DNA of 64,000 bases, from NCBI GenBank assembly GCA_036785375.1, contig JAWMAR010000286.1, forward strand, positions 2,418,001-2,482,000, written 5' to 3'. Position numbers and translations under genes: made by a program. How positions within the stretch are numbered: the first letter of the stretch is position 1; each line of letters opens with the position of its first letter. Source of the DNA: Leucoraja ocellata (lineage: Eukaryota). A model generated the notes under the pieces. The model was not told where the DNA came from and made no database searches. It saw nothing but the letters and a program-made list of their open reading frames with translations. Below, one piece after another: positions 711 to 64,000 of the stretch.

Positions 711-1378
711 ACCGGGTGCCGCTTCGATGGCAGCTTCGCCAACAGACTGTCTGTCCTTTTTGTCTTTTTTGTGTGTTGTTTTTTTGTTATTTTTAGTGTG
801 TTTAAAAAGTATGTGTTAATGTTCTCTGGTTTGTTTTAGGTGGAGGATGGGAGGGGGGTCGGGGCAAACTTTTTTGCAATCTCTAACCTTGCCAGAGATG
901 CGATTGTTTTCCGGATCGTATCTCCGGTCGCTCTGTGACCTAACATCGTGGAGCTGGAGGCCTTGCTCAGGATTGTCTTTGAGCCCACTGCAGGGGCTTG
1001 AACTAACCATCAGAGCCGATTCCTTGCCTGGGATCGACGCTCCAACTGCAGCCTGCGGACTTTAACATCAAGAAGCTCACAGTCTCGGGTTGAGACTGAC
1101 ATCGGGGAGCTGAGATTCCTCCCCTATGCAGGAGCTTGATCGCACCGACGAGGAGTCCCGCCACCGGCTACGGGAGTAAGATCATCCCGTTAACGGAAGG
1201 TTAGAGGCCCTCGACTGCTGGAGGACAAAGAGGGAGAGATTTATTTTTTTTGCCTTCCATCACAGTGAGGAATGTGGGGGAGTCACTGTGGTGGATGTTT
1301 ATGTTAAAATGTACTTTATGTGTTCTGTTGCTTTTTATTGGTATGGCAAATGAAATTCCTGGTATGTTTCAAAACATA
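711..1378 (+). mobile_element. GC-rich non-coding retroposon (SINE-like), copy A; its tail continues at 2171-2240
   Basis: T-rich leader, G-run, hairpin at 891-928 and 3' tgccttcc..cacagtg..tgtgg..gatgtt motif, all shared with copies B and C; tail aataaagtatgattatgatt. Confidence 0.55.
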
Positions 1379-2170
1379 CAATACAATACAATACAATACA
1401 ATACAATACAATACGGGTTTATTCATCACATTGCACATAAAGTGCAAGTGAAATGAATATGTCAGCAGCGATACAATGCGAAAGAACACACAATACATAA
1501 TAAAATTGAAAATTTAACACAAACATCCCCCACAGCATTCATCACTGTGGTGGAAGGCACAAAAAATGGCCAGTCCTACTCCATTTCCCCCCGTGGTCGG
1601 GACCAGAGTCCAGAGTCATTCCATAGTTGGCTCTTCCCCACCGGAGACCACGGCTTCAGGATGGTGTTGGCCGCAGGCCGGCGGTCGAAGATTTAAAGTC
1701 CCCGCCGCAGCCAGAAGCACCGCAGACAGCAGGGCCGGTAGTCGAAGCTCCCCTCCAGGGGTGATGGTAAGTCCATGCCGAGTACGCGGTAGAGGTTGGC
1801 CGCGGGCCGGCAGTGGAAGCTCCTTCTTCCCCCGGGTCCCCCCCCGACGGATCCCGGGCTGCGGACGCCGCGCCAGCTGGAACTCTGCAGACCGCGACTT
1901 CAGGCTGCCGGCTGCCGCGGGCCAGCGAAATGGAGCGCTCCCCTCCGGCGGGCCCCAGCGAGGGCTCACCCTCTCCACGCCGAGAGACCACGAAGCCCCA
2001 GGCACGCCTCCGGGAAAGGCCGCGCCGATCCTTGCTGTTAGGCCACGGGAGAGGCGACCTGGAAAAAGTCACCTCTCCGTGGAGGAGGCGACCAAAATGG
2101 TTTCCCCCTTACCCTCCCACACCACCCCGCACACAAGACACACAAAGGAACACAAAAACGTACTTTAAAA
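1379..2170 (-). mobile_element. GC-rich non-coding retroposon, copy B, inserted antisense into copy A
   Basis: (CAATA)n tail at 1379-1413; aaaacata duplicated on both flanks; same architecture as copies A and C. Confidence 0.6.
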
Positions 2171-2240
2171 CATAAAGTATGTTTGGCTAATAAAGTATGA
2201 TTATAATATACTTGGCTAATAAAGTATGATTATGATTATT

Positions 2241-2760
2241 CAGATTCAGATTCAATTTTAATTTTAATTGTCATTGTCAGTGTACAGTACAGAGACAACG
2301 AAATGCATTTAGCATCTCCCTTGAAGAGCGACATAGCAAACGATTGGACAGACTCAATGGAAGGGAGCGTGGAACCGGTGATGCGTTGGGCAGTTGCCAT
2401 ACCATACTGTGATGCAGTTGGTAAGGATGCTCTCGATGGTGCAGCGGTAGAAGTTCACCAGGATCTGAGGAGACAGATGGACCTTCTTCAGTCTCCTCAG
2501 GAAGAAGAGACGCTGATGAGCCTTCTTGATCAGAGTAGAGGTATTGTGGGTCCAAGAGAGGTCATCGGAGATGTTGACTTCCAGGAACCTGAAGCTAGAA
2601 ACACGTTCCACCTCCGTCCCGTTAATGTGGATGGGGGTGTGAGTGCCGCCTCTGGACTTCCTGAAGTCTACAATGAGCTCCTTGGTCTTCTTGGAGTTAA
2701 GGGCCAGGTTGTTGTCAGCGCACCATGCTGCTAAGTGCTGGACCTCCTCCCTGTAGGCCA
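2241..2760 (-). mobile_element. Rex1/Babar (L2-group) LINE RT 3' fragment
   Basis: ORF 2354-2611 ERVSSFRFLEVNISDDLSW..KKAHQRLFFLRRLKK..FYRCTIESILTNCITVWYGNC; (TCTGAA)n tail also seen at ~3640-3695 and 18515-18592. Confidence 0.8.
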
Positions 2761-3845
2761 GCTTATGATTATGCTTTTCTATGTTTCTATGTTTCTAGGA
2801 TGGTGGGTATATGGAAGGAACAGCCAGTGGAAGTGGTTGAGGCAAGAACAATAACAATATTTAAAAGACTTTTGGATAGGTAAATGGATTGGAATGGTTT
2901 AGAGGAATATGGATCAAACGCAGGTAAATGGAGCTGGTCTATGTGGGCGTCTTGATCGGTGTGGAGGAGTTGGGCTAAGGACCCGTTTTCAATGCCATGT
3001 GGCTCTTTGACTGCATGAGTAATTGAGAGTAATTATAAGGAAAACATTAAACACAATGATGAGAACAAAACAGCAGAATAGTGCAAGATTGATGTGCGAT
3101 CCGAGGCAGTGCTAGTAATGCTTTATTTAGGAAATTCTGAAAACTATAAGATGAGTAGTTTATAACATGTTTAGCTCAAGAGTTTATGTATTGTGAAAGC
3201 ACGATGGGAAAAGATGCTATCATAGTGAAGGGAACCTAAGGATGCTAGGAGAGGCAATAAATACATATATCAGGTGTAAATTCCACATGTAACGGGAATA
3301 GAGGTGTCCTTTATTGTACCCATTTGTTACGAAAATAGAGGAATTATATCCCAAGGCAGGAAACTGGAGGTTGAATTGGCATAGGATATGCACGCATTTG
3401 TTAGGTGAATGGGAGGAATTGTTTCCTAGTGACAGGACGGCACGGTGGTACAGCGGCAGAGTTGCTGCCTTACAGCGATAGAACCCTGGGTCCTAATACT
3501 TTGGGTGTCTCAGAGTGTTTCACAGTGTGCACTGCCAGGCCTTGAAGAAACCGACATTTGAGAAACTCACCACTATTCTATGCAATGTTCTTTGTGTCTG
3601 TTCTTATTTGAACTGTAATTGGACAACTGGGCCCCAAGTTGCATTTCGTTGTCTCTGTACTGTACACTGACAATGACAATTAAATTGAATCTGAATGTGA
3701 AGTGAAAGCCAGATTCACAATACAGGTTAAACACAAAATTCCCTCCAACAATGCTAAAGTGCAATAATAGAATAACTGAGTGAGACAGAGTGAAGTATGT
3801 GGCAGCACCTCTGGGAACTGAGCCTTGAAAAAAGCAAGTTTGTTA

Positions 3846-4716: not shown

Positions 4717-4923
4717 TGTAGATCAGTGCATGTTCCTTTAACCATAGTGACCTCCCGTATTACTAACCACTCCCCATTGTCTCCAGTATAATTGTAGTGT
4801 CCCCACCTCTAGCTCGCTCTCTAGCTCCAGTGATGACCACGGACAGCTACAGCATAGTGATAAACAGTTACCTAAATAAATAGTTACAGTAAAAGACTTG
4901 TGTGTGCAGTAAGTCATTTTACA
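4717..4923 (+). repeat. Gypsy 5' LTR (207 bp)
   Basis: Identical by eye to 9270-9476; contains AATAAA. Confidence 0.95.
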
Positions 4924-5013
4924 TGGTGTCACAGCGGTAGACTTGCGTCTCCTGTTCATCGGTTTTTATTTTATTATTTCTTTCTCCCAGTCCTTCCCTC
5001 CGTTCCTTTTATC

Positions 5014-6132
5014 ATGTCCCACCACTGTCGTCGACCAGACACGTTGGTGTTCGACACGGACATTGTCCATCGCTGGACCGTGTTCCAGCGCGATTACGAG
5101 CATTACATTGCTATCGCCCATCCTGATGCCACTCCTGCTGTACAGGCTCACCTATTGCTTAACCTCGCGGGACCTGCAGCTATGGATCAGTATGCATCGT
5201 TCCATTTCGCCACCGGAGAGGACCGCAACGACCCGGTATGTCTCCTTAATAAGTTCGCTGCCCTCTGTGATATACCCACCAACAACATCATCGAACGCTT
5301 CAAATTCTTCCAGAGGCAGCAGCTGCCAGGCGAGCCTGTCGGCACTTACATTGCCGCCTTGCATCACCTGGCTCAGCGCTGCCGCCTTGACACAATCACC
5401 CCTGACGAATTAATTAGGGACGTCCTGGTCAATGGTCTCCGCAACGATAGACTGCGTGAGCAGCTCTTAGTGAAACCCGATCTGACACTGCGGGATGCTA
5501 TGTATTCTGCACGCATGTCCGAAGCCGTTGGTTCCGTGTCCAGACAGGCTCCCCAGGACATTAACTTCACCGGTCAAGCCGGTCGCCTGACTACACGACG
5601 AAACCCCGCGGCTCTCCCCATGAAGGCCGCCACCTCCACTGTCCCGCGACGCTGCCCTAACTGTTTTTTTTATGGCTCATCCCTCAAACATTTGCCCAGC
5701 ACAGGGCAAGACTTGTCTTTCCTGTGGCAAACTCGGCCACTTTTCTGCCGCCTGCCGTTCCCGTGGGAAGCCAGTCCCTGCTCCAAGAAGGAGTCTAAAC
5801 AACCTTGCCGAACTAAACAACATTGCACTCCCTGATAGCGCTCTGCTTCCTCAGTACGAGCTGGAGGAGCTCCAAGACTCTGATGCACTCCCCTCTCGTG
5901 AAGATCCAATTATTTTTTCACTCTTGGGTACACCTGCTCTGATTACGGATCCCTCTGTGCATGTTACTGTGAACGGCCATTCCTTTTCAGCCAAGGTCGA
6001 TACTGGCGCTTTCGCCAATGTTATGTCAATAAGCCTTTTCAAGCAGATCAGATCTGGTGAGAAAGTTCTTCCTGGTGACACCTGCCTCCATGCCTACGGG
6101 GGGGGGGGGGGGGGGGGGGCGTCCTGGTTCCC
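5014..6132 (+). CDS. gag: Gypsy gag plus aspartic protease, frameshifted at T8 (5664-5671) and G22 (6098-6119)
   Basis: MSHHCRRPDTL..ERFKFFQRQQLPGEPV..LIRDVLVNGL; zinc knuckles CPNC..H..C and CLSCGKLGHFSAAC; protease VDTGA. Confidence 0.85.
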
Positions 6133-9100
6133 GTGGGTAAGGCAACTCTTATCTGCACAGTTCTAGAGACCTCTCGGCCCCTCACTTTCCACCTTCTGGA
6201 CTCTGACAACGTCACCCTGCTGGGCGCCCGTGCGTGTCAGGACTTGGGGCTAGTCTCATTCCACCACAGCATTCACCTAGTGCAGGCTCCCATGGACCCA
6301 CTTACCGAATACCCCGACCGCTTTGATGACGTTCTGGGCAAGCTGCCCTGCGACTATAAAATTGTTGTCGACCCGAGCGTCGACCCGGTGATTCGGCCGG
6401 CACACCGCGTCTCCTTTGCCATGAAGGGCCGCGTGGAGTCTACTCTGCGCGATATGGTGACCATGGGCATCCTCAAGGAGGTGAGCGCTCCCACCAGGTG
6501 TGTCTCCACCATGGTCGTCGCAGCCAAGAAGGACAAAAGCGAGATCCGGATCTGCATTAACCCCAAGGACCTCAACCTTGCCATCAAGCGCCCCCACTAC
6601 CCCATGCGGACGGTAGAGGACGTTGCTGCACAGGTCGGCCCTGCTACTGTCTTTTCAGTCCTAGACGCCAAGAGCTCCTTCTGGCAAATCCCTCTGGACG
6701 AACGCTCCTCATTCCTCACCACTTTCAGCACTCCCTTCGGCCGGTTCCGTTTCCTCCGCATGCCGTTTGGAATCAACTCTGCCAGCGAGGTTTTCCAGCG
6801 CACCATGGAGCAACTGTTTGCCGGCTTACCGTGCGCCATCATCGTGGATGACATTCTGGTGTACGGGAGGGACGTCGCTGAGCACGACCTGAACCTCCGC
6901 AAAGTCCTGGACAGGGCGCGGGTGATAAACCTCAAGCTGAACCCGAAGAAATGCCGATTCCGGGTCCCAGAAGTCACTTACGTTGGCCATGTCTTCACGG
7001 CAGGGGGTCTCAAGCCCGACCCCCAGAAAACGTCAGCGGTCACTGACATGCCCGCTCCTACCGACGTCCCTGGCCTGCAGCGCTTCCTGGGCATGGTCAA
7101 TTACCTGGGTAAGTTCATACCCGACCTCAGTGAACTGAGTGCCCCCCTACGGGAACTAATCAAAAAGGACTCCGCGTGGGTCTGGCTCCCGCACCACCAG
7201 TCGGCTTTCGTGACTCTGAAGTTGAAGCTTGCCGCTACCCCGACTTTGAAATTTTTCGACCTGCACCGACCCATTATCCTCACTTGCGATGCCTCCAAGT
7301 TTGGTCTCGGTGCCGCTTGTCTGCAGCTTTATGACAACCTTCAGCTGCCTGTCTCCTACGCTTCTCGCACCATGACCCCTGCCGAGCAGCGCTATGCCCA
7401 GATTGAAAAAGAGCTGCTTGCCGTGGTCTTCGCTTGCTCCAAGTTTAAAGACTACATCCTCGGCAACTCTTTCACCATCGAGACTGACCACCAGCCGTTG
7501 GTGACAATCCTGAATAAACCTATCCATGTTGCTTCTTCCCGGTTGCAGCGCATGATGCTGCAGCTCCAACGTTTCACGTTCCAGATCGTCTACCGTAAGG
7601 GCAAAGACATGTTTGTAGCTGACACTCTTTCTCGTGCTCCGCTGCCTTCCGTTGTCCGCCACCCATACGAAACCTCCGACCTTCTGGTACTAAACGTCAA
7701 CATTGTTCCTTCACAGCAAATGCAGTCCCTGGTCCAGCACACTGCTGATGATCCTGCCCTGCAACAACTTGCGGACGTTATCCGCCGTGGTTGGCCTGAC
7801 CGTCGCTCCGAACTGCCTGCTGGCGCTGCACCATATCTCCTCGTTCGCGACGAACTGGTGCTTCACGCCGGCGTGGTGGTAACGGGTCACAAAGTCGTGG
7901 TGCCTGCCGCACTCCGGGATCATTATTTCCAGACTGCTCACAGCGGCCACCCTGGGGTGGAAGCTACTCTATCCCATGCCCAAAGCCAATTCTACTGGCC
8001 TGGCATGGCTCAGGACATCCGTGACAGGGTCTCCGCCTGCGCTGCCTGCAACACCCTGCACCCCCATCAGCAGCGCCAGCCTCTCCTGCAGCCGCCGGCT
8101 CCAGAGCTCCCATGGATGGCCGTTGCCACCGACCTCTTTGAGTGGCGCGGAAAGCACTTCCTGGTCCTCGTGGATTCCTATTCCAGCTGGTTCGAGGTCG
8201 ACCAGCTGACCTCCATCACCTCTGCCGCCGTCATCGGGAAACTTCGCCGCCACTTCTCCACCTTCGGCTCCCCGGTGACCCTCCGGTCCGACAATGGCAG
8301 CCAATTCTCCAGCGACGAGTTCAAGACCTTTGCTGCCCGTTGGAACTTTCACCACATCACCAGCAGCCCCGAGTTTCCTCAAAGCAACGGACTTGCTGAG
8401 CGGGCCGTACGTAGCGCCAAGGAGCTGCTGGAACACTGCCGCCTGTTCCGTGCCGATTTCCACCTTGCCCTGCTCAACCTCCGCAACATTTCCCGCGACC
8501 CTGCGCTCGGTTCCCCTGCCCAGCGCCTTATGTCTCGCACCACCAGACCTCCCCTGCCGGTCTCCCAGCAGTCCCTCAAGCCCTCAGTACAAAATCCTGC
8601 CACTGTCACTGAGCGCATTGCCAAAAAACAGGACACCCAGAAGCGCTCCTTCGACAAATCTGCCTGGCTACTCCCACGTCTGCTCCCGGGACAGGTTGTC
8701 CGGATGCAATCCCCCACTGGCCACTACCGCCTGGCCGTCGTAATCGGCGACGCCGGTTCTCCGCGCTCCTACTTCGTCGACTACGAGGGGGCTATCTACC
8801 GTCGCTCCCGCCAGCACTTACTCCTTGTGAATGAGCCCGCTCCGCCTCCCGCGGATCCTTCTCACCCCCCCATTTCTTCTCGACCTCCCGCTGCCCCTCA
8901 CGCCCCATCTACACCTCGCATGCCACGCACCCTACCCTCACAACTGTCCGCCCGTTCCCCTGCCTCGCCTGTCAAGCCAGCATCGCCCGCAAAACCTCCC
9001 TCCCCTGCCAAGCCTGTTTCTCCACCCGCAGCCCCGCATTCTCCTCCGCCCGCCTCCCCTGCCCATCCCCCGGCTGCCGTCCCTTCTGTTCCCGACGATG

Positions 9101-9174
9101 AGGAGGAGGGCGGCTTACGCACCCGCTCTGGCCGGCTGGTCAGGCCGCCTGTCCGCTACGGGGAACTCGCATAG
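6133..9174 (+). CDS. pol: Gypsy pol: RT, RNase H, integrase
   Basis: RT RMPFG and IIVDD; RH CDAS..YAQIEKE..TDHQPL; IN HSGH..CAAC, VDSYS, SDNG, AERAVR; Pro-rich tail ending TRSGRLVRPPVRY. Confidence 0.95.
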   Translation: MGKATLICTVLETSRPLTFHLLDSDNVTLLGARACQDLGLVSFHHSIHLVQAPMDPLTEYPDRFDDVLGKLPCDYKIVVDPSVDPVIRPAHRVSFAMKGRVESTLRDMVTMGILKEVSAPTRCVSTMVVAAKKDKSEIRICINPKDLNLAIKRPHYPMRTVEDVAAQVGPATVFSVLDAKSSFWQIPLDERSSFLTTFSTPFGRFRFLRMPFGINSASEVFQRTMEQLFAGLPCAIIVDDILVYGRDVAEHDLNLRKVLDRARVINLKLNPKKCRFRVPEVTYVGHVFTAGGLKPDPQKTSAVTDMPAPTDVPGLQRFLGMVNYLGKFIPDLSELSAPLRELIKKDSAWVWLPHHQSAFVTLKLKLAATPTLKFFDLHRPIILTCDASKFGLGAACLQLYDNLQLPVSYASRTMTPAEQRYAQIEKELLAVVFACSKFKDYILGNSFTIETDHQPLVTILNKPIHVASSRLQRMMLQLQRFTFQIVYRKGKDMFVADTLSRAPLPSVVRHPYETSDLLVLNVNIVPSQQMQSLVQHTADDPALQQLADVIRRGWPDRRSELPAGAAPYLLVRDELVLHAGVVVTGHKVVVPAALRDHYFQTAHSGHPGVEATLSHAQSQFYWPGMAQDIRDRVSACAACNTLHPHQQRQPLLQPPAPELPWMAVATDLFEWRGKHFLVLVDSYSSWFEVDQLTSITSAAVIGKLRRHFSTFGSPVTLRSDNGSQFSSDEFKTFAARWNFHHITSSPEFPQSNGLAERAVRSAKELLEHCRLFRADFHLALLNLRNISRDPALGSPAQRLMSRTTRPPLPVSQQSLKPSVQNPATVTERIAKKQDTQKRSFDKSAWLLPRLLPGQVVRMQSPTGHYRLAVVIGDAGSPRSYFVDYEGAIYRRSRQHLLLVNEPAPPPADPSHPPISSRPPAAPHAPSTPRMPRTLPSQLSARSPASPVKPASPAKPPSPAKPVSPPAAPHSPPPASPAHPPAAVPSVPDDEEEGGLRTRSGRLVRPPVRYGELA

Positions 9175-9269
9175 TATTGTACTGTTGCCGGTGCGGTTGG
9201 TGTTCGTAGCGTATGAGCCGTGGTCATTCTGTATAGTACCTGCCACGCTTTTGTTTCCAAGAGGAAGGA

Positions 9270-9476
9270 TGTAGATCAGTGCATGTTCCTTTAACCATAG
9301 TGACCTCCCGTATTACTAACCACTCCCCATTGTCTCCAGTATAATTGTAGTGTCCCCACCTCTAGCTCGCTCTCTAGCTCCAGTGATGACCACGGACAGC
9401 TACAGCATAGTGATAAACAGTTACCTAAATAAATAGTTACAGTAAAAGACTTGTGTGTGCAGTAAGTCATTTTACA
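9270..9476 (+). repeat. Gypsy 3' LTR (207 bp)
   Basis: Direct repeat of 4717-4923, preceded by the PPT. Confidence 0.95.
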
Positions 9477-10489
9477 CTGTGTTCACCACTCTGCAGGGGC
9501 AAAATGTCAACTGCAGACCAGTTACCATACTAATCTAAGATGGATCCCATCAGAATACTTTCTATACCACAATTGTGGAAGTTCGAGAGAATCCTCATGG
9601 ACACACTGGACCCAGTGGTTTGCGCAGGATTTGGACACAAAACATCAACGATCCCTTTCCCCAACAGATGTTACTTCACCCACTGAGTTTCTCTAACAGA
9701 TTATTTGGTACACAAGTGAACAGATCCTCCAAACGACTCCTTTTCAATTGAACTGAATCAGCTGAATCATCTCCAGAATCATTCAAATGGTTTTGTTATA
9801 GTCTGGCCTGACAACTATTTCTGCTAAGTTCACACTGATGATATGAAGAGTTAAGGCAAGAGCCAGGAGTGTTTAATTGTCATCTACACTGGCAATGGAA
9901 CAATTACATTGCCTTATTACAATTACATAGGACAGTTTCTTCCCAGCTGTTATCAGGCAACTGAATGGTCCTACCACAACCACAGAGCAGTGCTGAACTA
10001 CTATCTACCTCTTTGGTGACCCTCCAACAATCCTTGATTGGACTTTGCTGTCTTTACCTTGCATTAAATGTTATTCCCTTAACATGTATGTATACACTGT
10101 AAATTGCTCGATTGTAATCATGTATTGTCTTTCTGCTGACTATGGTGTTGAGCTTCTTCCTCAGTGTATACATTGAATCATCTTTCTGTTTCCCCAATCA
10201 CATAACATTTTATGGCATAAATAATGTCTTAATAATCCTAAGCCTTGAATGTCAAAATCAGTGTTGGAAACGGGTTTTAGGAACTAGGGGTACTCTAAGG
10301 TCCGTGAGGCTGAGGTTGGGAAGGAAGGGCGGGGGGGGGATTTTTTTGTGTGCGGTCATACCCATGTAAGAGTACAAGAATGCATAACTTGTTTATTGTG
10401 TATTTATAATATAGTTTATTGTGTATCATATGTCAAAGCTGCTTTCTTGCATCTCTCTCTCAAATGGACGAAAGCAATGATCATAGAGC

Positions 10490-16945: not shown

Positions 16946-17920
16946 TTATATATTTGCAGAGTCCAAAATTCTCTCTGCAAATAAAACAGGTTTTGCTGAT
17001 GGCTTGTTGTAGAACGTTTGAAATGTTCTTTCCATGGACCACCCCGCTGTTGCCAGGATGTGGTCTAATGGCACGTCCATTCTTTTAGCCGCCGACGTGG
17101 ATGCTGCCCTGGTGGAGTGAGATGTGTAAATATCAGTATCCACTCCAGCAGCTCCCAGTACCTGTTTGAGCCATCTAAAGATGGTCTGACTCGACTCCCG
17201 ACCATGTGGCTTTTTGTGGCTGACCCATAGTGTTTTTTCTCTCCCTCGGGAATCTTTGGTTGTGTTGATGTATAGTAGAAGGTGAGTCATGACACATAAA
17301 CGGGGGTCAGGTGGGTACGCCCGGAATTCCATAATGAGTCCTGAAGTTCCTGGTCTGCTCTGTTTTACCAGCTCCTGAATGGTGAATGTTATTTGGTCTG
17401 ATGTTACAACCATATTGTCCAGTCTGAGTAGATAAAGGGACTGGACCCTTTGTGCTGAGACTAAAGCCATCAGCATGGCCGTTTTCAGGGTTAACTGTTC
17501 TAGAGCTGGTGGCCATCCCCTTAGGTATGTCAGGACAATGCTGACATCCCAGATCTTGGTGTACCTAGGTCTAGGGAGGTTTGAATTGAAGATCCCTCTC
17601 ATTAATTTGGCCACCAGCGGATTAGACCGTATGGCCTGTTGTCCTGGTGCCTGTCTTAGGTAGGCTGACAGTGCACTTCTAGCACAATTGATAGCGCTAT
17701 AGCTCAGACCTTCATCATGGTGAAGGCTGGCCAGGAAATCCAGTACATTTGTTATGGTGGTTGATCTGTAGGTTGTCCCTTTTCTCGAGCAGTATGTTTC
17801 CCATTTTCTTATACTCGAGAGGTGTTGTTTCTTGGTGGAAAGTCGGTGATATGCCGTCATCGTGTCCATGGTCCTATTTGACAATCCCAGATCCATCAAA
17901 GGCCTTTTTAGAATCTGCAA
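16946..17920 (-). CDS. DIRS tyrosine recombinase, open frame of 324 aa
   Basis: SAQRVQSL (R), VKQSRPG (K), SHSTRAAS (HxxR), AGWS (W), FQTFYNK (Y); N-terminal ARSALS. Confidence 0.92.
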   Translation of the reverse strand: MQILKRPLMDLGLSNRTMDTMTAYHRLSTKKQHLSSIRKWETYCSRKGTTYRSTTITNVLDFLASLHHDEGLSYSAINCARSALSAYLRQAPGQQAIRSNPLVAKLMRGIFNSNLPRPRYTKIWDVSIVLTYLRGWPPALEQLTLKTAMLMALVSAQRVQSLYLLRLDNMVVTSDQITFTIQELVKQSRPGTSGLIMEFRAYPPDPRLCVMTHLLLYINTTKDSRGREKTLWVSHKKPHGRESSQTIFRWLKQVLGAAGVDTDIYTSHSTRAASTSAAKRMDVPLDHILATAGWSMERTFQTFYNKPSAKPVLFAERILDSANI

Positions 17921-20030
17921 CCCAGTAGGTTTATTCTGTCATGGCATGGGTGACTTTCGCCTGATACAGGGTGAATCAGTAGATCTGGTCCGCTGGGAAT
18001 GGTCATGGGTGTTTCAACAACCCTGTCAAGGACCACTGGGAACCATGGCTGTGTAGGCCAGTCGGGTACTACCAAAATGCCTGAAGCAGAATCCATCTGT
18101 TTTTTGCGTAGTACCCGACTGATGAGGCAGAAGGGGGGAAAAGCATAGAAAAAATAGTTCCCCCAGTTCAGCGCGAATGCATCCATCGCCGCTGCCTCAG
18201 GGTCTGGTTCCCAAGCGACATACATCGGTACCTGGTGATTCAGTCAGGATGCAAAGAGATCGATATCTGGTGTTCCATATTGCTTTGTAATTTCAGCAAA
18301 TACTTTGGGGTTTAACATCCATTCGGTGTTATCATTGAACTTGCGTGACCTGGTGTCTGCCATTGTATTTAGCTTACCTGGTAGGTAAGTTGCTGATAGC
18401 CAAATATGTTTGTCGACACACCATTGCCGGATTGTGTTGACCAAATTATCACATGATATCGATTTTATCCCGCCCATATGGTTAATATAGAATTTGATAT
18501 GGTTAATATGAATTTAATGCATTTCGTTGTCTCTGTACTGTACACTGACAATGACAATTAAAATTGAATCTGAATCTGAATCTGAATCTGAATATAGGCC
18601 ACCACTGTCTATTGAGTCTGCAAATGAACATGCAATGGGTGCATATTTGAACAATATGCTTTTAAACCATAGAACGCTCCCAACATTTCCAAATAGTTTA
18701 TGCCCAGTGTCTGTAGTAGTGATGATTCTAGATTAGTCCATCTACCACCTGTACTGGATATGGTGTTAGTTGCTCCCCAGCCTTGAGCACTGGCATCTGT
18801 TTGTATTGTTAATGTTGGGTTATTGATAATGATGGGACTGGAACTATGCCAAATGTTCTCTTTCCACCATTGTAACTATGATATTGCTTCAATGGGCAAT
18901 TTCATGGTTCGGTCAAAGTGACCTGCATGTTGTTTTAACACTTGCACCTTTGATCTTTGTAAGTTTTGATAATGCAAAGGTCCAAACTGGGTAGCTGGAA
19001 ATGCTGCTACTAATTTCCCAATTACTCTTGCCACTTGTCAAATGGTTGGTTGATTGTTAACCATTCATTTGTTACAGGTTTGTGCCAATTATGCTGATTT
19101 TTCTTTTGGCAACGTTACAGACATGTGGACTGAGTTAGTTGTGAATCCCAGACAGTCCATAGTTGTGGATGGCGTCAACTTAGATTTATCTGGATGTATG
19201 ACAAATCCCAAGGTTTCAAATAAATGTTTAGTAGCTAATCCTGCTGAATTAGCTAATTCCATGGTTTTGCCTATTATCAAAATATCATCAAGATATGCCA
19301 TGACAATATGTTTTTGTTTTCTTAATATTGCCAAGACTGGTTATAATATCTTGGTAAACAGTCTTGGGGCTGATGTTAACACATTAGGCAATGATTTGTA
19401 CTGCCTTAGTTGCCCCATCCAGGTAAATTGTAGGTATCTACGATGATCCTTATGAATGGGTACTAAATAGTATGCATCTTTTAAGTCGATGCTCGCCATA
19501 AAGTATCCTTTGGAAATCAATTGTTTGGCAGTCACAAATGTTTCCATTTTGAAGTGTATATACCTAACGAAAGTATTCAATGTGGTTAAGTCAATGATGA
19601 TGCGACATCCGCCTTCTTTTTTGGTTTAAGTAAATATATTTGATACAAATACCAAAGGTCCATGTTTATATATCTCTATGATACCCTTTGTATGTAACCT
19701 CACCAGTTCTGCTTGTCCCTCACATTTTTCTTTTAGTGAGAGGGTAAAACCCCTTTGGGGAGCATGCTGAACTGGTGGCATGTTTTCTTGAATTAATTCA
19801 ATTTTATATCCTTGAATACTATTAAGTATATAACTATCAAGTGTGATAGTCCTCCATGCTTCCATAAACAGGTGTACTCTCCCCCCTGTTAGCACAATCC
19901 ACCCACCTTTTATGTACTGGTAGGAACCAGACCCACCTACCTCCATTGTTATTGGTGGTGTATTAATTTCTTCGGTTTCTGTTTCCTTGTCTGTCAGGGT
20001 GGTGCTGTTGGGGGGTGGCGCATTTTCCAT
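17908..20030 (-). pseudogene. DIRS RT / RNase H / methyltransferase-like ORF, broken by stops, frameshifts and an insertion at ~18490-18592
   Basis: SIDLKDAYY, SAPRLFTK, AYLDDILI, HMGGIKS, YLPGKLNTMADTRSR, DIDLFAS, YAFPPF..VVPDWPTQPWFP. Confidence 0.9.
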
Positions 20031-21205
20031 GGGGCCCGCTCTGGGCCCTGTCCTAAAAAATACTTCCGGGGATGGTATGCGGGCCCCGAGCTTTCACCAG
20101 TACCATGAAGTAGACGCCTACTGGTGGATGCAATGGGATACTGCCATCTGGGTTGCGTGATTTTGCTCGTTCCGGGTCCTGCCCTCATGAGGCCAAATAC
20201 CTTGGATTCTTCGTCCAAATCTTTGACTTGCTTTGGCAAGTCCTTGCCAAATAGCAGGATCTGTGGTTCTGAGGTCTGCGTTCTACACAGTCCTGCGAAT
20301 TTTGGGTTGATGGCAGGTCTGATGGCTTCCTTCCGGAGGTTGTTAATCTCATATTGTGTGTTGCACGGTAGAGCCCGGGTGTCTTGTTGGTTTGTTGTCA
20401 TATCTACCCCGTCCACAGAACGAGCGTGATAGCCGACGTCAGGAGCTTCAATATCTTTTGCAGTTTTAATTCTTGGGTTCTGATACCCTGCCCAATGTAC
20501 CCCCAGATTTGACTATTAACGGCAGGCACATTGAGCGAAATGCAATTTTCAGGTGTGTAGAGGTCCAACTCTACCTTTGACTACCTGTTCTTGCAGTGGT
20601 TTAAAGGACAGGTAGTCAATACTGGCCGCCAGTTTAGGCTGTAATGGCTGTCCCACTCGTCGTGTTGCCGTGTAGTGGTTCACCACTCCCAGCAACTCTT
20701 CCTGATCCTGTACCCCAAGCATACTCCCGGTTTCTTCAGCCAGTGACCCCTGTTCTTCACCAGCCCAGTCCTGGTCGCCAACGCTCCCCTCTGCTGAGGG
20801 AGATGAGATGGCCAGTGCTTGATAATGCACTGGAGCAGGAGTGCTTGTACTCCCTTGGCGAGCTTGCCCCATCTCCCGGAGCAAGTCTCGCTGGAGCATT
20901 TGCTCCATGAGCCTTTCCATTCGGCTCAAACGGCCACCTTTGCTGCTTTCGGGCGGTGAGTCTTCCGCACCGAACTCGTCTGTGTAAACCGGCCGGTCCG
21001 ACCTCCGTTTTGCCTTACCTCCAACCCGCTGCGGTTGTTCGAGCTGTGCTAGCGGTGCTGGGTTCGGCTTGGAAATGTTGTCGGTGACTGTGGACCGCAG
21101 CGTGTGCAGTTCAGGTGTCGCCGGTCGCCCCCCACTGATGGAACCCTCCTGTTCCGTTGCAGTTGAATGGGGTACGACCTTCCTTGGTTGTTTTCCCTTG
21201 TTCAT
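19994..21205 (-). pseudogene. DIRS ORF1 (gag-like), frameshifted
   Basis: ORFs 20549-21205 and 19994-20416 (EINNLRKEAIRPAINPKF..LLFGKDL) upstream of RT. Confidence 0.7.
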
Positions 21206-21408
21206 GATCCTGTGTGAGTAAACCAGAACAAGGGTTCAAAACAACACGACCTCAGAGTAAGTTTACTTACCTGGAGGTCCCGTTTTTAAACTTGTTGCGG
21301 GAGAGCTCGTACTCCCGTTCGTCGCTGTTGCACTGTGTGAGATGCTATGTCGCGCATGCGTGCTGGCGGGGTCTTCACGTAGTCACTCACGTGATTTCGA
21401 AGTAAAAT

Positions 21409-40199: not shown

Positions 40200-42690
40200 C
40201 TAGACTAAGTGGGACCCGTTGGGTCCCATGTTCACAAGGGAGGGCTGGTCCCTCAATGCAATATTTCGTGGGGGGGGGGGGGGGGGGGGGTCTAGAGCAC
40301 TAGTATGGCTATTGTGGGCTGAAGTAACTGGTTTTGTGAGGTCTAGTATGGACATTGTGGGCCAAATGGATTCTTGGGGTGCCAGCTCAGTCACTCAACC
40401 CTGATGTGCTGGCAGCACACTCACGGCTGATGGGCTGGCAGTTGACTCACGGATATTACTTGAAATTCCATTTCAAACAGGGTGCAAGGCCACCAAATTC
40501 AAATGCAATTTCTTACCATTTCAAGCAGGATGAAAGGCCACCAAATTCAAGTGCAGTTTCGTACCACTTCAAGCAGGGTGCAAGTCAAGTCAAGTCAAGT
40601 CAAGTTTATTTGTCACATACACATACGAGATGTGCAGTGAAATGAAAGTGGCAAGGCCACCAAATTAAAGTGCAGTTTCATGCCACTTCAAACAGGTGCA
40701 AGGCCACCAAACTCAAATGCAGTTTCCTGCCACTTCAAGCAGGGTGCAAGGCCACCAAATTCAAGTGCAGTTTCATACCACTTCAAGCAGGGTGCAAGGC
40801 CACCAAATTCAAGTGCAGTTTCATACCACTTCAAGCAGAGTGCAAGGCCACCAAACACAAGTGCAGTTTCATGACACTTCAACCAGGGTGCAAAGTCACC
40901 AAATTCAAATGCAGTTTTATGCCACTTCAAGCAGGGGTGCATCGCCACCAATTTCAAGTGCAGTTTCATGCCACTACAAGCAGGGTGCAAGGCCACCAAA
41001 TTCAATGCAGTTTCATACCATTTCATGCAGGATGCAAGGCCACCACATTCAAATGAAGTTCCATACCATTTCAAGCAGGGTGAAACCACCATAAAACCAC
41101 ATGAAACACCATGTAAACACCACATTCACAGTTCAGTAGGCATTCAATGTGTTCAGTTGATTTACAGTTCAGTCAGAGTCGTGACCTTTCCCTCCCGCAT
41201 CTTGCAGAGACTGAGCCACACTCACACTTCCGGGTTTTATAATCCCCTCTCCCTCCCACCAGAAGGGGCGTGCCGTCATGGCATGATTGACAGGAGAGGG
41301 ATTCTCAACATTTTTTAAACACTAATAACACTTATATTTTTCAATGATGGGAAAAATCCTCTGCACCTGATGAGCGAGGGGGACTGAGTAAGATGGCCAT
41401 AAGTGGTAGCGTTTTATCTAAAATCAATATACAGTGCAAACAGGAAGTTGTCAAGTTTAGACTTTGAATCGTATGGCATCCACCACCAATAACCATTTGC
41501 TGTGCTTTATCTCAAACCAACCACAACAAACAACCATTTGCTGTGATTTATTTCAACCAACCACAACAAACAACCATTTGCTGTGATTTATTTCAAACCA
41601 ACCACCACCAACAACCATTTGCTGTGCTTTATTTCAAACCAACCACCATCAACCATTTGCTGTGCTTTATTTCAAACCAACCACATTTTCATTTTTAAAC
41701 CACATTAAGGGCACTCATGGTCAGTAAAACCATGCTCACAGTTTAGTATACATGTGTTCAGTGTTATTCACAGCTCAGACTGAGAGACGTGACCCTCTCG
41801 TTCCCCCATCTTGCAGGGACTGACTGAGGCACTCAACACTTCCGGGTTTTATAGTCCCTCCGGAAGGGGCTTGGCCTTCAGGAGAAAGAATCGCAACATT
41901 TTGTAAACACTGAAACCCCTGTCCCATGGTGCGAGTCCACCCACGAGTTATCCCGAGTTAAAACAAATCAAACTCGTGGTAATCACGTAGAATGAACGTA
42001 GCGGGAACATCGGAGCTCATGGACGTAACTTAGCGACTCGTAACGCTAATGGCAGGTACTCGGGAAACGTGGTAACTCGTGAAAATGTTGACAGATTTCC
42101 ACAAGTCAAATATCGTCTTGAAGGAAAATTTTTATACTTTTAAACTCGTAATACCGTAGTAGCCCGTGCGTTTATCGTATTAACTCGTGGGTAATCTTAA
42201 CTCGGCAGCTGGACAGAGAAAAAAAAGGTGAGGAAAAAAAAAGGTTCATCAAGTCTGCCTGTCAGGAATGATCTCTTGATGCTGGAGACACTGGGGGAAT
42301 CTCACCTTGGCCTTTGGAATAGAGCGACCAACAACCAATATTTCCACATTTCCAAGGGGCAGGTCACTTGTTTATGTGTCTTTCACATTACTGCTTCAGA
42401 GGTTTGGGTGGAAACAGGCTCTTCGGCCTACTGAGCCAGTCGTCAAACACTCATTTACCTCAATCTAATTTCTGCCCGCATTCACATTAATTTCCTACCT
42501 GAGCCCCATTCGACCACTCACCGACACATTGGGGGAAGGTGACAGTCCTTCAGGTGTTTTTGCCATTCATTTCTCATTGAGTCATGGGCTCATACAACAC
42601 AGCAGGTGTTGCGGGGAGCATTCATGCAACAAAGCAGCGTGCGGGGAGTGAAAGAGTGAAAGGGTGCACTTGGGGGAAACTCCATAAAAA
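40200..42690 (-). mobile_element. Non-autonomous Helitron-like element, copy 2 (5' boundary uncertain)
   Basis: Minus strand ends GGGACCC-aac-GGGTCCC-acttagt-CTAG|T, the canonical Helitron hairpin plus CTRR; ~11 units of 48 bp at 40470-41085 and 5 units of 41 bp. Confidence 0.8.
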
Positions 42691-51060: not shown

Positions 51061-51115
51061 TCTGCCTTTCATCCCCATACCTCTGTATCTCCTATCCTCT
51101 CCCCAACGAGTACCG

Positions 51116-51880
51116 TAGGGGGCACTGCACTGGCAGCAGCCTCTACCTACAGCCTGTCTGTTATTTCAATCTTTTTTTAATTTTTAGTTAGTCTAAAGTT
51201 TTGTGTTGGGGGAAACTTTAACTTTTCAATGTGGGGGGGGGGGCAGGGTAAGGGGGAAACCGTCTCCCTGTCTCTTCCTGGCGGGGACGCGACTATTTCT
51301 CCGAGTCGCGTCCTCGCCCCCCACCTCGCGGCCTACCAGCTGGATCGGAGCAGCCTTTCCTGCCGGGGACCAGGAACCGGACCAGGGCTGCTACAGCGGC
51401 GGCGCAGCGCTGGAGTCACCGCGGAGCGGGCGATGCCTACCTGGGTCGCCGTTTGGAGCTCCGAAGCGTTGAGCCGCTGCTCCAACATCGTGGAGCTCTG
51501 GTGCGGAGAGATTCCAACGCGGGCGGCGCTGAACAACATCGTGGAGTCCTGGGGCGCCTTGCAGAGGGTCTGCAGCAGTGGGTCTCCACCCGGCGCGGCC
51601 TGCGGACTTTGGAAGCCACCGACTCCGGTAGGAGGGGGCCGACTCTGGTGTCCACGCCACTGAGGACGTCCCGCAGCCCCAACGTCGGACTTGTATCACC
51701 CCGGCGAGCGGTCCTGGACATCCGGCAGCCCGTAGCTGCAACTGCGGAGGGCTTGGGGAGGCCCTGACCATGAGGAACAGTGGAGGAAGAGACTGACTTT
51801 GGTGCCTTCCCACACAGTGGGAAACTTTGATTCTGCTGTGTGGGGATGTTTTATGTCAAACCCTATAGTGTGTGTTCTTT
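51116..51880 (+). mobile_element. GC-rich non-coding retroposon, copy C
   Basis: Same architecture as 711-1378; hairpin at 51280-51318. Confidence 0.55.
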
Positions 51881-55494: not shown

Positions 55495-56250
55495 CATGGG
55501 TGTAAATCTCGAAGGGGCCAGGGGGAACACGTCCCCCTCATGTTTTGAGAGGTGGGGGATGACCCCCACCCCCCCCATGTTTTGTAATCTGGATTTTGAA
55601 ATTTAAATTTGAATGTGAAAAAAATCTATTAAAAAATCTCCGCTTTCCGCGAGACAATGGGAGTGAGATTGATGGTCGAGGGCGCTGATTGGACGAGAGA
55701 GACGTTGGTCAGCAGGCAGTGGGGGGGGGGATGGAACATGATGATTCAGCGTGATGATTGGAGGAGGGAGGTATCGGTCAGAGGCGGAAGTAGGGGGGTG
55801 GGACTGAGGATAGAGCTCGGTGATTAGAGGAGGGAGACGTCCTGGTGGAGCAAAGATCATAAAGCAGAGCTTGAATCGGCCCATTCACGGGGCCTTTCAT
55901 CACCCGGAGAGGCTTAAAATTGGCTGCCCCGCGATCAAATTGCTGCGTCGAGGCGATTGGGGCTCCTGATGTTGAATCCCCCGCCAGGCGATGGAAGAGC
56001 CTGCAGCCGGTTTTAAGCCGCACCGGGCGACGAAACCTCATGAACGGGCCGATTGAAGCCCCAGAATTCGGGGCGGATGAAGCTGCTGTTGCTGGAGTTT
56101 GGAGTCGGTCACCAACCAGGTCAGCTCCTGATGTTATCGTCCACAGGGCCCACGGCCGAAGCCTTGTGTGTGTGTGCGTGCGTGCGTGCGCACGTACAGT
56201 ACCAAGAAATTGTCCCCCCCCCCCATGTTTTGATAGCGATTTCCGTCCTG
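55495..56250. mobile_element. hAT-like MITE inserted into a minus-strand V-SINE
   Basis: TIRs catgggtgtaaatc and gatttccgtcctg; imperfect 8-bp TSD tttataga / tttacgga. Confidence 0.6.
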
Positions 56251-62940: not shown

Positions 62941-63609
62941 AAAAAGACTAGGGTACATCAGATGCCCTAAATACGTGCTATTGTGGTTGACGTGGAACTG
63001 CGCAGGATAACAAGGTGCCAGGAGTGACTATAGAAGAAGCGACTATGTTTACAAAGAAGTCTCACCAAAGTTGTTCAGAAAGGATGATGATCTACAATAA
63101 AGGCTGTGTTTTTGAATGTCCCAATCGATCAGAGAGAGATACAAAGGTTAGTAAAGATAAAATATGTGGTATTTACAAAGACCCGAGGGAGTTAGAGAAT
63201 GAGTTGAGAAATTCCCAGACTGAAGGAGAATAACATAAACAGATTGATTGTACATTCGGTTGAATCAATAAGGTTATGATTCAACCGAATGAAGGAAATG
63301 CTCATAGCTGAAGTTGCTACTCATTTATCTTGTGCCAGGCCCCTTAGTTATTTGCTAGAGCTGCCAAAAATTACATAAGCATTAAGTAAAGAAAGGCTCC
63401 AAGAATGTCAGCTCTTTATGGCAACTTTAAATACTGGAAAACAAAGCTACCTGCATTGCTACAAATTCAGGTAGACGTGACCTCTCCAGGCTGTTGATTT
63501 ACTCTCCCCCCCCCCCCCCCCCCCCCCACCCCACCATCATCAAATGTCGAGCCACTGCACCAGTATCCCAGCACAAGACATCAAGAGGGTAGTGGTGATG
63601 AGATACTTT

Positions 63610-64000
63610 GGAGAGGGTTACCACCTTGTTGTGGTACAGAAGCCTGTGTGTGCCTAACATCTAGAGAGTTAAGCTAACTGGAGTTACGCTGCTGGCAGGG
63701 TCATTCATGGCGGGCAAGTCAAGGGGGAGGCTCGTGACAAAGAAGCTGTCATGAGCCTCCCAAGAAATTGATCTCAATGGTGAAACAGGCGGAGGATGGT
63801 GGCTGGCCAGCAGGTGGAGCACCACAACAGCTGAGAAGGTGGAAGAAGGCTGCAGCAAAGGAGAGATTCCCAACTATCGTGGAGTCCACATTGTTGGACC
63901 CGCCCGCGTCAGTCTCTGTTAAGGTCTGTGTGGTGGTTGTCCGTGCACGAGACTCCCTGCATTAAAATATGTCATGCACAGGCATCCACCTGGAGGGATA
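63610..64000 (+). mobile_element. RTE (Rex3/Expander-like) 5' UTR remnant
   Basis: ttaccaccttgttgtgg..ggcagggtcattcatggcgggcaagtcaaggggg resembles the remembered RTE 5' end. Confidence 0.4.

Follow-up and report, generated by a model that had tools for sequence, protein, structure and literature searches.

The question raised by this locus is why three diverged, GC-rich, ORF-less elements keep a long hairpin while its sequence changes, and which machinery mobilizes them. The window, which is the whole stretch of 64,000 nucleotides (64 kb) that was analysed, is repeat-rich vertebrate DNA containing CR1-, Rex1-, Gypsy- and DIRS-type remains. It probably comes from a ray or skate, to judge by this mix of repeats and by the high Rex1 coverage reported for rays (PMC13343379). 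A preliminary description had taken the elements, called A, B and C here, for a non-autonomous retroposon family that carries a selected RNA structure and is mobilized by Rex1/L2 machinery. The reading favored in this study, to which we assign a probability of roughly 60%, is that they represent three related subfamilies of one retroposon, which has no ORF and depends on Rex1.

Architecture of the elements and their Rex1-type ends

The three elements are homologous, are 730-800 nt long each, and are joined by nhmmer at both ends or along most of their length with E values of 1e-5 to 1e-20. No fourth copy was detected by nhmmer in the 64-kb window, and a covariance model of the 5' domain matched A, B and C only. 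As shown in Table 1, the common architecture, of which we are highly confident, consists of a Rex1 head without the start codon, a T-rich run, a GC/CpG-rich insert, a 3' stem-loop, and a Rex1 tail. The GC/CpG-rich middle amounts to 400-600 nt and contains the hairpin, H1, the domain of which sits 130-150 nt inside the element, away from the 5' end. The observed-to-expected ratio of CpG is 0.69-0.81 for the elements versus 0.45 for the window.

Table 1. Parts of elements A, B and C and the adjoining reverse transcriptase (RT) fragment, in window positions.
Feature	Position	Strand	Remark
A, whole element	~711-1375, tail resuming 2182-2238	+	
A, Rex1-type 5' head	715-736	+	7-bp hairpin with bulged A; the preceding ATG of Rex1 copies is missing
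A, T-rich run	after head to ~840	+	
A, G-rich run	841-869	+	GGGGCAAAC at 861-869
A, H1	891-928	+	14 pairs and an A x C mismatch; loop rich in pyrimidines
A, CCTAACA block and UUGCUC segment	935-968	+	block 935-945; segment 963-968, can pair with GGGCAA at 862
A, GC/CpG-rich non-coding body	969-1240	+	three degenerate AACATC..GGAGC repeats
A, 3' stem-loop	1254-1298	+	z -3.9; 5' arm ends in acceptor-like CACAG at 1265
A, Rex1-type tail, first part	1345-1375	+	interrupted by B
A, tail remainder	2182-2238	+	AATAAA plus ATGATT repeats, one duplication
B, whole element	~2173-1376	-	5'-truncated at ~2173, hence no head
B, G-rich run	2100-2135	-	donor-like GG|GTAAGG (GGTAAG at 2113); GGGGGAAAC at 2108-2100
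B, H1	2043-2082	-	
B, CCTAACA block and UUUCCC segment	2012-2046	-	block 2046-2036; segment 2017-2012
B, GC/CpG-rich body	1600-2010	-	~24 nt missing at 1992 relative to the B family
B, 3' stem-loop	1524-1556	-	z -3.5
B, Rex1-type tail	1376-1465	-	ATTTC, stem-loop, AATAAA, (GTATT)n
C, whole element	~51110-51880	+	Rex1 tail missing beyond ~51880
C, Rex1-type 5' head	51121-51142	+	no ATG; T-rich run next
C, G-run	51231-51260	+	donor-like GG|GTAAGG (GGTAAG at 51247); GGGGGAAAC at 51252
C, H1	51280-51318	+	15 pairs
C, CCTACCA block and UUUCCU segment	51328-51361	+	segment at 51356
C, GC/CpG-rich non-coding body	51391-51780	+	
C, 3' stem-loop	51806-51848	+	z -6.5; acceptor-like CACAG at 51817
Rex1-type RT fragment (PF09004)	2239-2746	-	5'-truncated, own tail; at the end of A's tail

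To examine the origin of the 5' ends, 11 Rex1-like proteins of fish were aligned, and a scan of GTDB contigs with this alignment gave 16 RT loci; the animal retrotransposon sequence in the GTDB records L005-L009, L014, L016 and L018 is apparently host contamination. Two of the 16 loci, L006 and L007, show a 5' end, and both have the same layout of ATG, 7-bp hairpin with a bulged A, T-rich run, and ORF within ~130-230 nt. The hairpin directly follows the ATG at L006:70-91 and L007:514-535, in two divergent fish Rex1 copies. A head pattern built from these two loci alone, with at most two mismatches allowed, occurs at exactly two sites in the window, at the 5' end of A (715) and at that of C (51121); 0.03 sites were expected by chance, and none of 100 shuffles reached two. 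The pattern is present in 2 of 20 loci. In the head hairpin, 27 of 28 cells are paired, with no covariation beyond that of shuffles (254/500). The bulged 7-bp hairpin looks like a general 5'-end motif of Rex1, useful for finding the starts of full-length copies, and a short head motif common to Rex1 copies and ORF-less derivatives is thereby marked out.

The tails of A and B share one plan, which is ATTTC, a stem-loop, AATAAA, and a microsatellite. The Rex1 fragment of the window (2239-2310) follows this plan too, as do 2 of 10 loci in a pattern search, and the tails of A and B also resemble those of L007 and L008; the match is one of architecture and points to no single named partner. The RT fragment next to A is a candidate for the partner type of the retroposon. 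Since A and C begin with a Rex1-type head and A and B end in a Rex1-type tail, the Rex1 half of the proposed Rex1/L2 mobilization is supported, and no positive evidence was obtained for L2. B was inserted into the tail of A at a tail-like ATAC microhomology.

Some further Rex1-type remains were observed. Between 1376 and 2310, three elements with Rex1-type tails are nested at their tails, and each microhomology resembles the element's own repeat. The part of the RT fragment at 2390-2746 (-) is 82-87% identical to several teleost proteins, which fits the reported horizontal transfer of Rex1 between rays and teleosts. Solo Rex1-type tails without an ORF lie at 3640-3705, 18516-18593 and 40580-40650, the last of which resembles the tail of B.

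The elements combine a LINE 5' end (A, C), a tail of the same clade (A, B), and the absence of any ORF, which are features of bipartite non-autonomous LINEs and support the non-autonomous status proposed before. Neither an RT remnant nor the APE-RT ORF of an autonomous Rex1 follows the head in the elements. Four open frames of B and C gave no Pfam match, and protein homologues of two open frames of B were found neither among 453 candidates nor in a second search. A tblastn match to C (P0110) was rejected since it is gappy and lies outside the RT part. The absence of a tRNA-type head was likewise supported, as ARAGORN found no tRNA and a search for an A-box with a B-box downstream of it at tRNA spacing was negative. 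Runs of T4-T7 in the 5' part of the elements argue against Pol III, and the family does not belong to the Pol III SINEs.

Pattern scans for further copies returned nothing from viral contigs or GTDB contigs, and the four matches from metagenomes were all discarded as unrelated chance hits; a Rex1 protein scan of viral contigs gave 0 of 125 candidates. A description of the family was not encountered in the literature searched, in which subscription papers and Repbase Reports are sparsely represented, nor in PMC6274825, PMC2746220 and bioRxiv 10.1101/2025.06.08.657570. A deposited consensus for the family may exist in Dfam or Repbase.

Abundance and transcripts of the B family

Parts of the region 600-2300 were found in 20 of 23 listed sequencing runs, which come from 12 studies. 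Four runs, three of DNA and one of poly(A) RNA, were aligned to B only. The three DNA runs contain 13,036, 10,574 and 13,575 contigs that align to B, of which 76-79% are at least 90% alike, which indicates that B belongs to a young, high-copy family. In the poly(A) run, 9,700 of 7,335,232 records match B and only 36% of them are at least 90% alike; this run, which was added as one from the same study since the listed runs with the region include none of RNA, represents a fourth organism, other than those of the DNA runs. Abundant and transcribed in several related organisms, the family probably makes up a sizeable, poorly annotated share of their genomes and supplies them with CpG-rich inserts that resemble promoters. 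The coverage of Rex1 in rays is among the highest reported (PMC13343379, in part).

The first mates of the RNA reads are unequally distributed between the two strands. The ratio of plus to minus is 11-20 over 2010-2171, ~2.3-2.8 over 1605-1847, and 5-8 over 1470-1604. The excess strand is presumed to be the sense RNA of the element, where the usual library convention is assumed. The other strand is much flatter, and therefore the excess of RNA in the 5' part is not an effect of mapping or GC content. Expressed sister subfamilies, internally deleted forms, and splicing to host exons are candidate causes of this excess. Many of the presumed sense reads seem to exit the family soon after 1992, near a donor-like site at ~1969.

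The contigs bear on the first alternative, in which an autonomous Rex1 lineage specific to rays has a long 5' UTR, with promoter, that corresponds to the GC-rich domain, H1 is a structure inherited from this UTR, and the elements are plain bipartite deletion derivatives. Such an origin would agree with the Rex1 head and tail and with the internal deletion from which bipartite LINEs arise (PMC5786205, in part). Moreover, five contigs in each of two DNA runs (X1 and X3) leave the body of B at 1620 and continue into a different T-rich sequence, a divergence which could reflect a longer, autonomous form. Against this, the ORF begins 130-230 nt downstream of the head in L006 and L007, the two Rex1 copies that show a 5' end, and three Rex1 proteins of teleosts start with MA.. 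and have a Y-x-R-Q motif within 40 residues. In addition, the GC-rich middle with H1 resembles none of the 16 RT loci, of which two show the 5' end, and 120 Rex1-like proteins gave one chance, non-RT match to the elements. The preliminary description had itself named an annotated LINE UTR as the case that would overturn it; the domain is missing from these 16 loci, and an origin from the long 5' UTR of a Rex1 confined to rays is considered rather unlikely.

Conserved pairing in H1 and its explanations

The stability of H1 was evaluated relative to shuffled sequences. The folding energy is -19.1 kcal/mol in A (z -5.2), -27.4 kcal/mol in B (z -6.2), and -29.6 kcal/mol in C (z -7.0), and in each case none of 200 shuffles was equally stable; the three arm pairs lie and fold as the preliminary description had said. 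The motif GGGG[GC]AAAC does precede each stem, by 26-30 nt (861 in A, 2108 in B, 51252 in C), and it occurs at three further sites in the window, 42672, 14870 (-) and 51208, none of which is followed by H1. The trailing motif G[TC]G[GA]CCTA[AC]CA has exactly three sites in the 64 kb with zero mismatches (935, 2046 (-) and 51328). It stands after the stems of A and C as had been described, but in B its GTGG is the stem's own 3' end. The second GGGGGAAAC in C, at 51205-51222 upstream of the main one, could fold into a short hairpin closed by a GAAA loop.

Long stems by themselves are not rare in the window, the two strands of which contain 35 (17 + 18) of 13 bp or more, and therefore the evidence for H1 is the shared context. 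A, B and C, the bodies of which barely align, retain the length and position of the stem and the sequence of its loop, and four pairs are invariant among them. Hairpins of 15-16 bp that are unrelated to the H1 family lie at 20577-20619, 63251-63293 and 63725-63761.

The stem sequences had been described as different, but they are less so than stated, with 3 of 12 inner pairs changed on both sides. The stems are close homologues and their arms cross-pair: if G-U counts as a pair, non-cognate arms still form 10-11 of these 12; the Watson-Crick pairs among the 12 number 7-9 for non-cognate arms versus 9-11 for cognate ones. In an ungapped register of 15 pairs, 91% of the cells are paired and 4 of the 15 pairs show a double-sided change, where the outer three pairs of B are scored as broken because of a one-base bulge. 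One column reads U-A, G-C and C-G across the copies. The count of double changes was reached by 6 of 500 shuffles, and slid controls gave at most one, in a test that ignores the relatedness of its three sequences; three related sequences are too few for a real covariation test of H1.

Two variants within H1 were found among the 40 of 133 variant rows listed. At 2071, where B has a U.G pair, the family letter pairs G-C, and it is carried by 3793 of the 4335 RNA reads from one strand and by more than 88% of the summed depth in each of the three DNA runs; the U.G pair of B thus reflects CpG decay in this copy. With the family letter at 2050, the stem has a small internal loop.

The domains of 110-126 nt show only a modest gain over shuffles (z -0.9, -2.3 and -2.9), and each time the fold of the sense strand is more stable than that of the antisense strand (-36.8/-27.5, -57.3/-44.5 and -66.5/-55.1). 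A second stem-loop is present near the 3' end of A, B and C (z -3.5 to -6.5), with five invariant pairs and two columns in which C differs from A/B on both sides; the sole broken pair of this stem-loop in B is mended by the family letter at 1529. A third, neighboring hairpin that had been spotted by eye was dropped after shuffling (z -2.2, -0.3 and +0.8).

The claim of a selected RNA structure is moderately supported by the double changes in H1 and by the second covarying stem, while the small number of sequences and the possibility of template switching weigh against it. We consider it probable that selection at the RNA level acts on H1.

Template switching during reverse transcription or replication would make H1 a functionless inverted repeat that is kept perfect and mimics compensation. 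Such switching can create and repair RNA stems and produce multibase compensatory changes (PMC8794818, in part), and a copy of the core of the 3' arm is located just upstream of the 5' arm in B, among few sequences. This explanation appears improbable, because the length, position, loop and four pairs of the stem are constant over three subfamilies with the loop not inverted, the independent 3' stem covaries as well, and the family retains the internal loop at 2050 instead of a perfected stem.

Besides H1, the GGGSAA segment can enter two alternative pairings. With the UUKCYY segment ~35 nt after H1, 6 of 6 pairs are formed in A, B and C, including one C-G versus G.U change; with the H1 loop, 7 of 7 pairs are formed in B and C and 5 of 7 in A. 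Splice-like sites are also present. Donor-like GGTAAG near the 5' end occurs in B and C (30 such hexamers lie in the window), acceptor-like CACAG near the 3' end occurs in A, B and C (the chance rate is ~2 such sites per kb), and both lie within predicted stems, which suggests a possible role of the predicted folding in blocking splicing. The body of B contains, at 1766 (+), the exact complement of its own GGTAAG at 2113 (-), so that long-range pairing is possible.

On the basis of these sites, the GC-rich insert might be conceived as an undescribed functional RNA cassette that was captured by a Rex1 shell and acts as a structure-gated retained intron or RNA switch. The donor-like GG|GUAAG (B, C) and the acceptor-like pyrimidine tract plus CACAG (A, B, C) would be its bounds, GGGSAA would switch between the H1 loop and the downstream partner, and the insert would be indispensable to the Rex1 shell. 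The unspliced RNA would transpose, and the alternative fold would make copies into promoter-donor exons for host transcripts, which would account for the one-strand excess of RNA over the 5' domain. If true, this would add Rex1 as a fifth LINE clade with ORF-less derivatives, together with a new class of structured RNA in cartilaginous fish. An intron is so far unsupported, with no joint across ~1545-2112 and none backed by RNA among the 15 of 68 joints listed, and we give the cassette little credence.

The preliminary description had also suggested that the hairpin is part of a ribozyme, which was not upheld. A self-cleaving ribozyme, or a part of one, would trim the 5' end in the manner known from R2, RTE and Ingi; such ribozymes are carried by three of the four clades of LINEs known to yield bipartite elements (PMC5786205, in part), and the order of G-run, GGGSAA, pyrimidine tract, H1 and UUKCYY permits a pseudoknot-like topology. 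Nevertheless, Rfam gave no match at the gathering score over the whole window, and the sub-threshold matches (E <= 10) in two regions, 11 and 8 in number, are noise without meaning. A descriptor of the HDV-like ribozyme, which has a nested double pseudoknot with a catalytic C in J4/2, gave no match in A and C, and two loose matches in B need a G at 2007, where the family reads A. Neither a conserved hammerhead core nor a twister pattern was found in the elements. For twister (CCUAA plus GAGGG), the family lacks the A, and the GAGGG of B (2115) consists of non-family letters. A GAAA-tetraloop/receptor and a resemblance to 5S were considered and not confirmed. The domain is internal, no pile-up of read starts or ends was seen in the RNA over B, where fragmented libraries are insensitive to such pile-ups, and the strand ratio does not drop upstream of H1, so that no cleavage is visible in the RNA run. 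A ribozyme is therefore regarded as highly improbable.

Least likely of all is a DNA-level structure, such as a G-quadruplex or cruciform promoter or a pause site in single-stranded cDNA: G4-type runs lie just upstream of H1 in B and C and the decay origin of some G.U pairs makes strand asymmetry weak evidence for RNA, but the sense strand folds better in all three elements, the G4 pattern is missing in A, and recognition of duplex DNA by a protein would presumably not preserve complementarity amid the change of letters.

Proposed mechanism and comparison with known systems

The element is a non-autonomous derivative of Rex1 that is probably transcribed by Pol II and contains a conserved, folded RNA insert. 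In the proposed mechanism, RNA polymerase II would transcribe the element from the Rex1 head, aided by the CpG-rich insert, as the T4-T7 runs, the lack of a tRNA head and the CpG-rich body together suggest; bipartite LINEs are thought to be transcribed by Pol II (PMC5786205, in part). The Rex1 reverse transcriptase would recognize the tail in trans and insert the copy by target-primed reverse transcription. Recognition in trans is carried over by analogy from stringent LINEs with 3' stem-loops (PMC3747384, in part).

H1 would be the core of a folded 5' RNA domain that is under selection in the master copies only. It would display the loop, with the consensus UUUYUCC, on conserved loop-proximal pairs, while the distal pairs drift with compensation. 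The loop and the loop-proximal pairs are kept and the distal pairs vary together, which is the pattern of a recognition or docking hairpin. The most likely role of the domain is structural and not catalytic. As a scaffold or a module for protein binding, it may ensure that the full-length Pol II transcript, which has no ORF, stays intact, packaged and free from splicing up to the time of copying; such a specific protective or RNP role is put forward tentatively.

The closest known systems are the bipartite LINEs (RTESINE, WALLSI3, RIME/Ingi, and the Vingi-derived and R2-derived elements), which like A, B and C have LINE ends without an ORF and are both probably transcribed by Pol II and mobilized in trans (PMC5786205, in part). 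In contrast to them, A, B and C have Rex1 ends, a structured insert of 400-600 nt, and no ribozyme that could be detected. A survey in 2018 gave RTE, Ingi, Vingi and R2 only as sources of ORF-less bipartite LINEs, and it left open, in the part covered here, whether the limit to four clades is due to sampling or to a requirement of transcription (PMC5786205). A family with Rex1 ends would extend this four-clade list.

Rex1/Babar elements (PMC6274825 and PMC13343379, in part; L006, L007) share the head motif, its spacing, the T-rich run, the tail, and the tail-like insertion sites with A, B and C. Unlike Rex1/Babar, the three elements have no ORF, have lost the start codon, and possess a GC-rich middle, in which H1 lies, as well as the 3' stem-loop.

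The Rex1 clade includes RSg-1. The RSg-1-tailed SINEs (SlmI, Hpa I and OS-SINE1) and HE1, a V-SINE of elasmobranchs, are non-autonomous and have a LINE-derived tail and a conserved middle as A, B and C do (PMC3747384, in part). However, these SINEs have tRNA or 5S heads with Pol III promoters, whereas A, B and C have no such head, contain T4+ runs, and are 730-800 nt long. The covarying stems bear on the question of why non-autonomous retroposons keep conserved middle domains. SVA and LAVA are likewise composite, GC-rich and non-coding, with splice signals and a 5' domain that sets the mobilization rate, and the mobilization of SVA is altered by the 5' domain and by splicing (PMC7353768, in part). 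They are L1-dependent, poly(A)-tailed and specific to primates, so that the likeness is an analogy of workings and no kinship of sequence is claimed.

Other repeats were observed in the remainder of the window. A further CpG-rich, repeat-like stretch at 55860-56160 shows no kinship to A, B and C by nhmmer. A fragmented DIRS-type element at ~16946-21235 (-) contains a tyrosine-recombinase frame (PF00589, slightly under the curated cut-off). An LTR retrotransposon at 4717-9482 has terminal repeats of 213 bp that are 99% identical and a frame of 1031 aa for RT, RNase H and integrase, and it represents a recent insertion.
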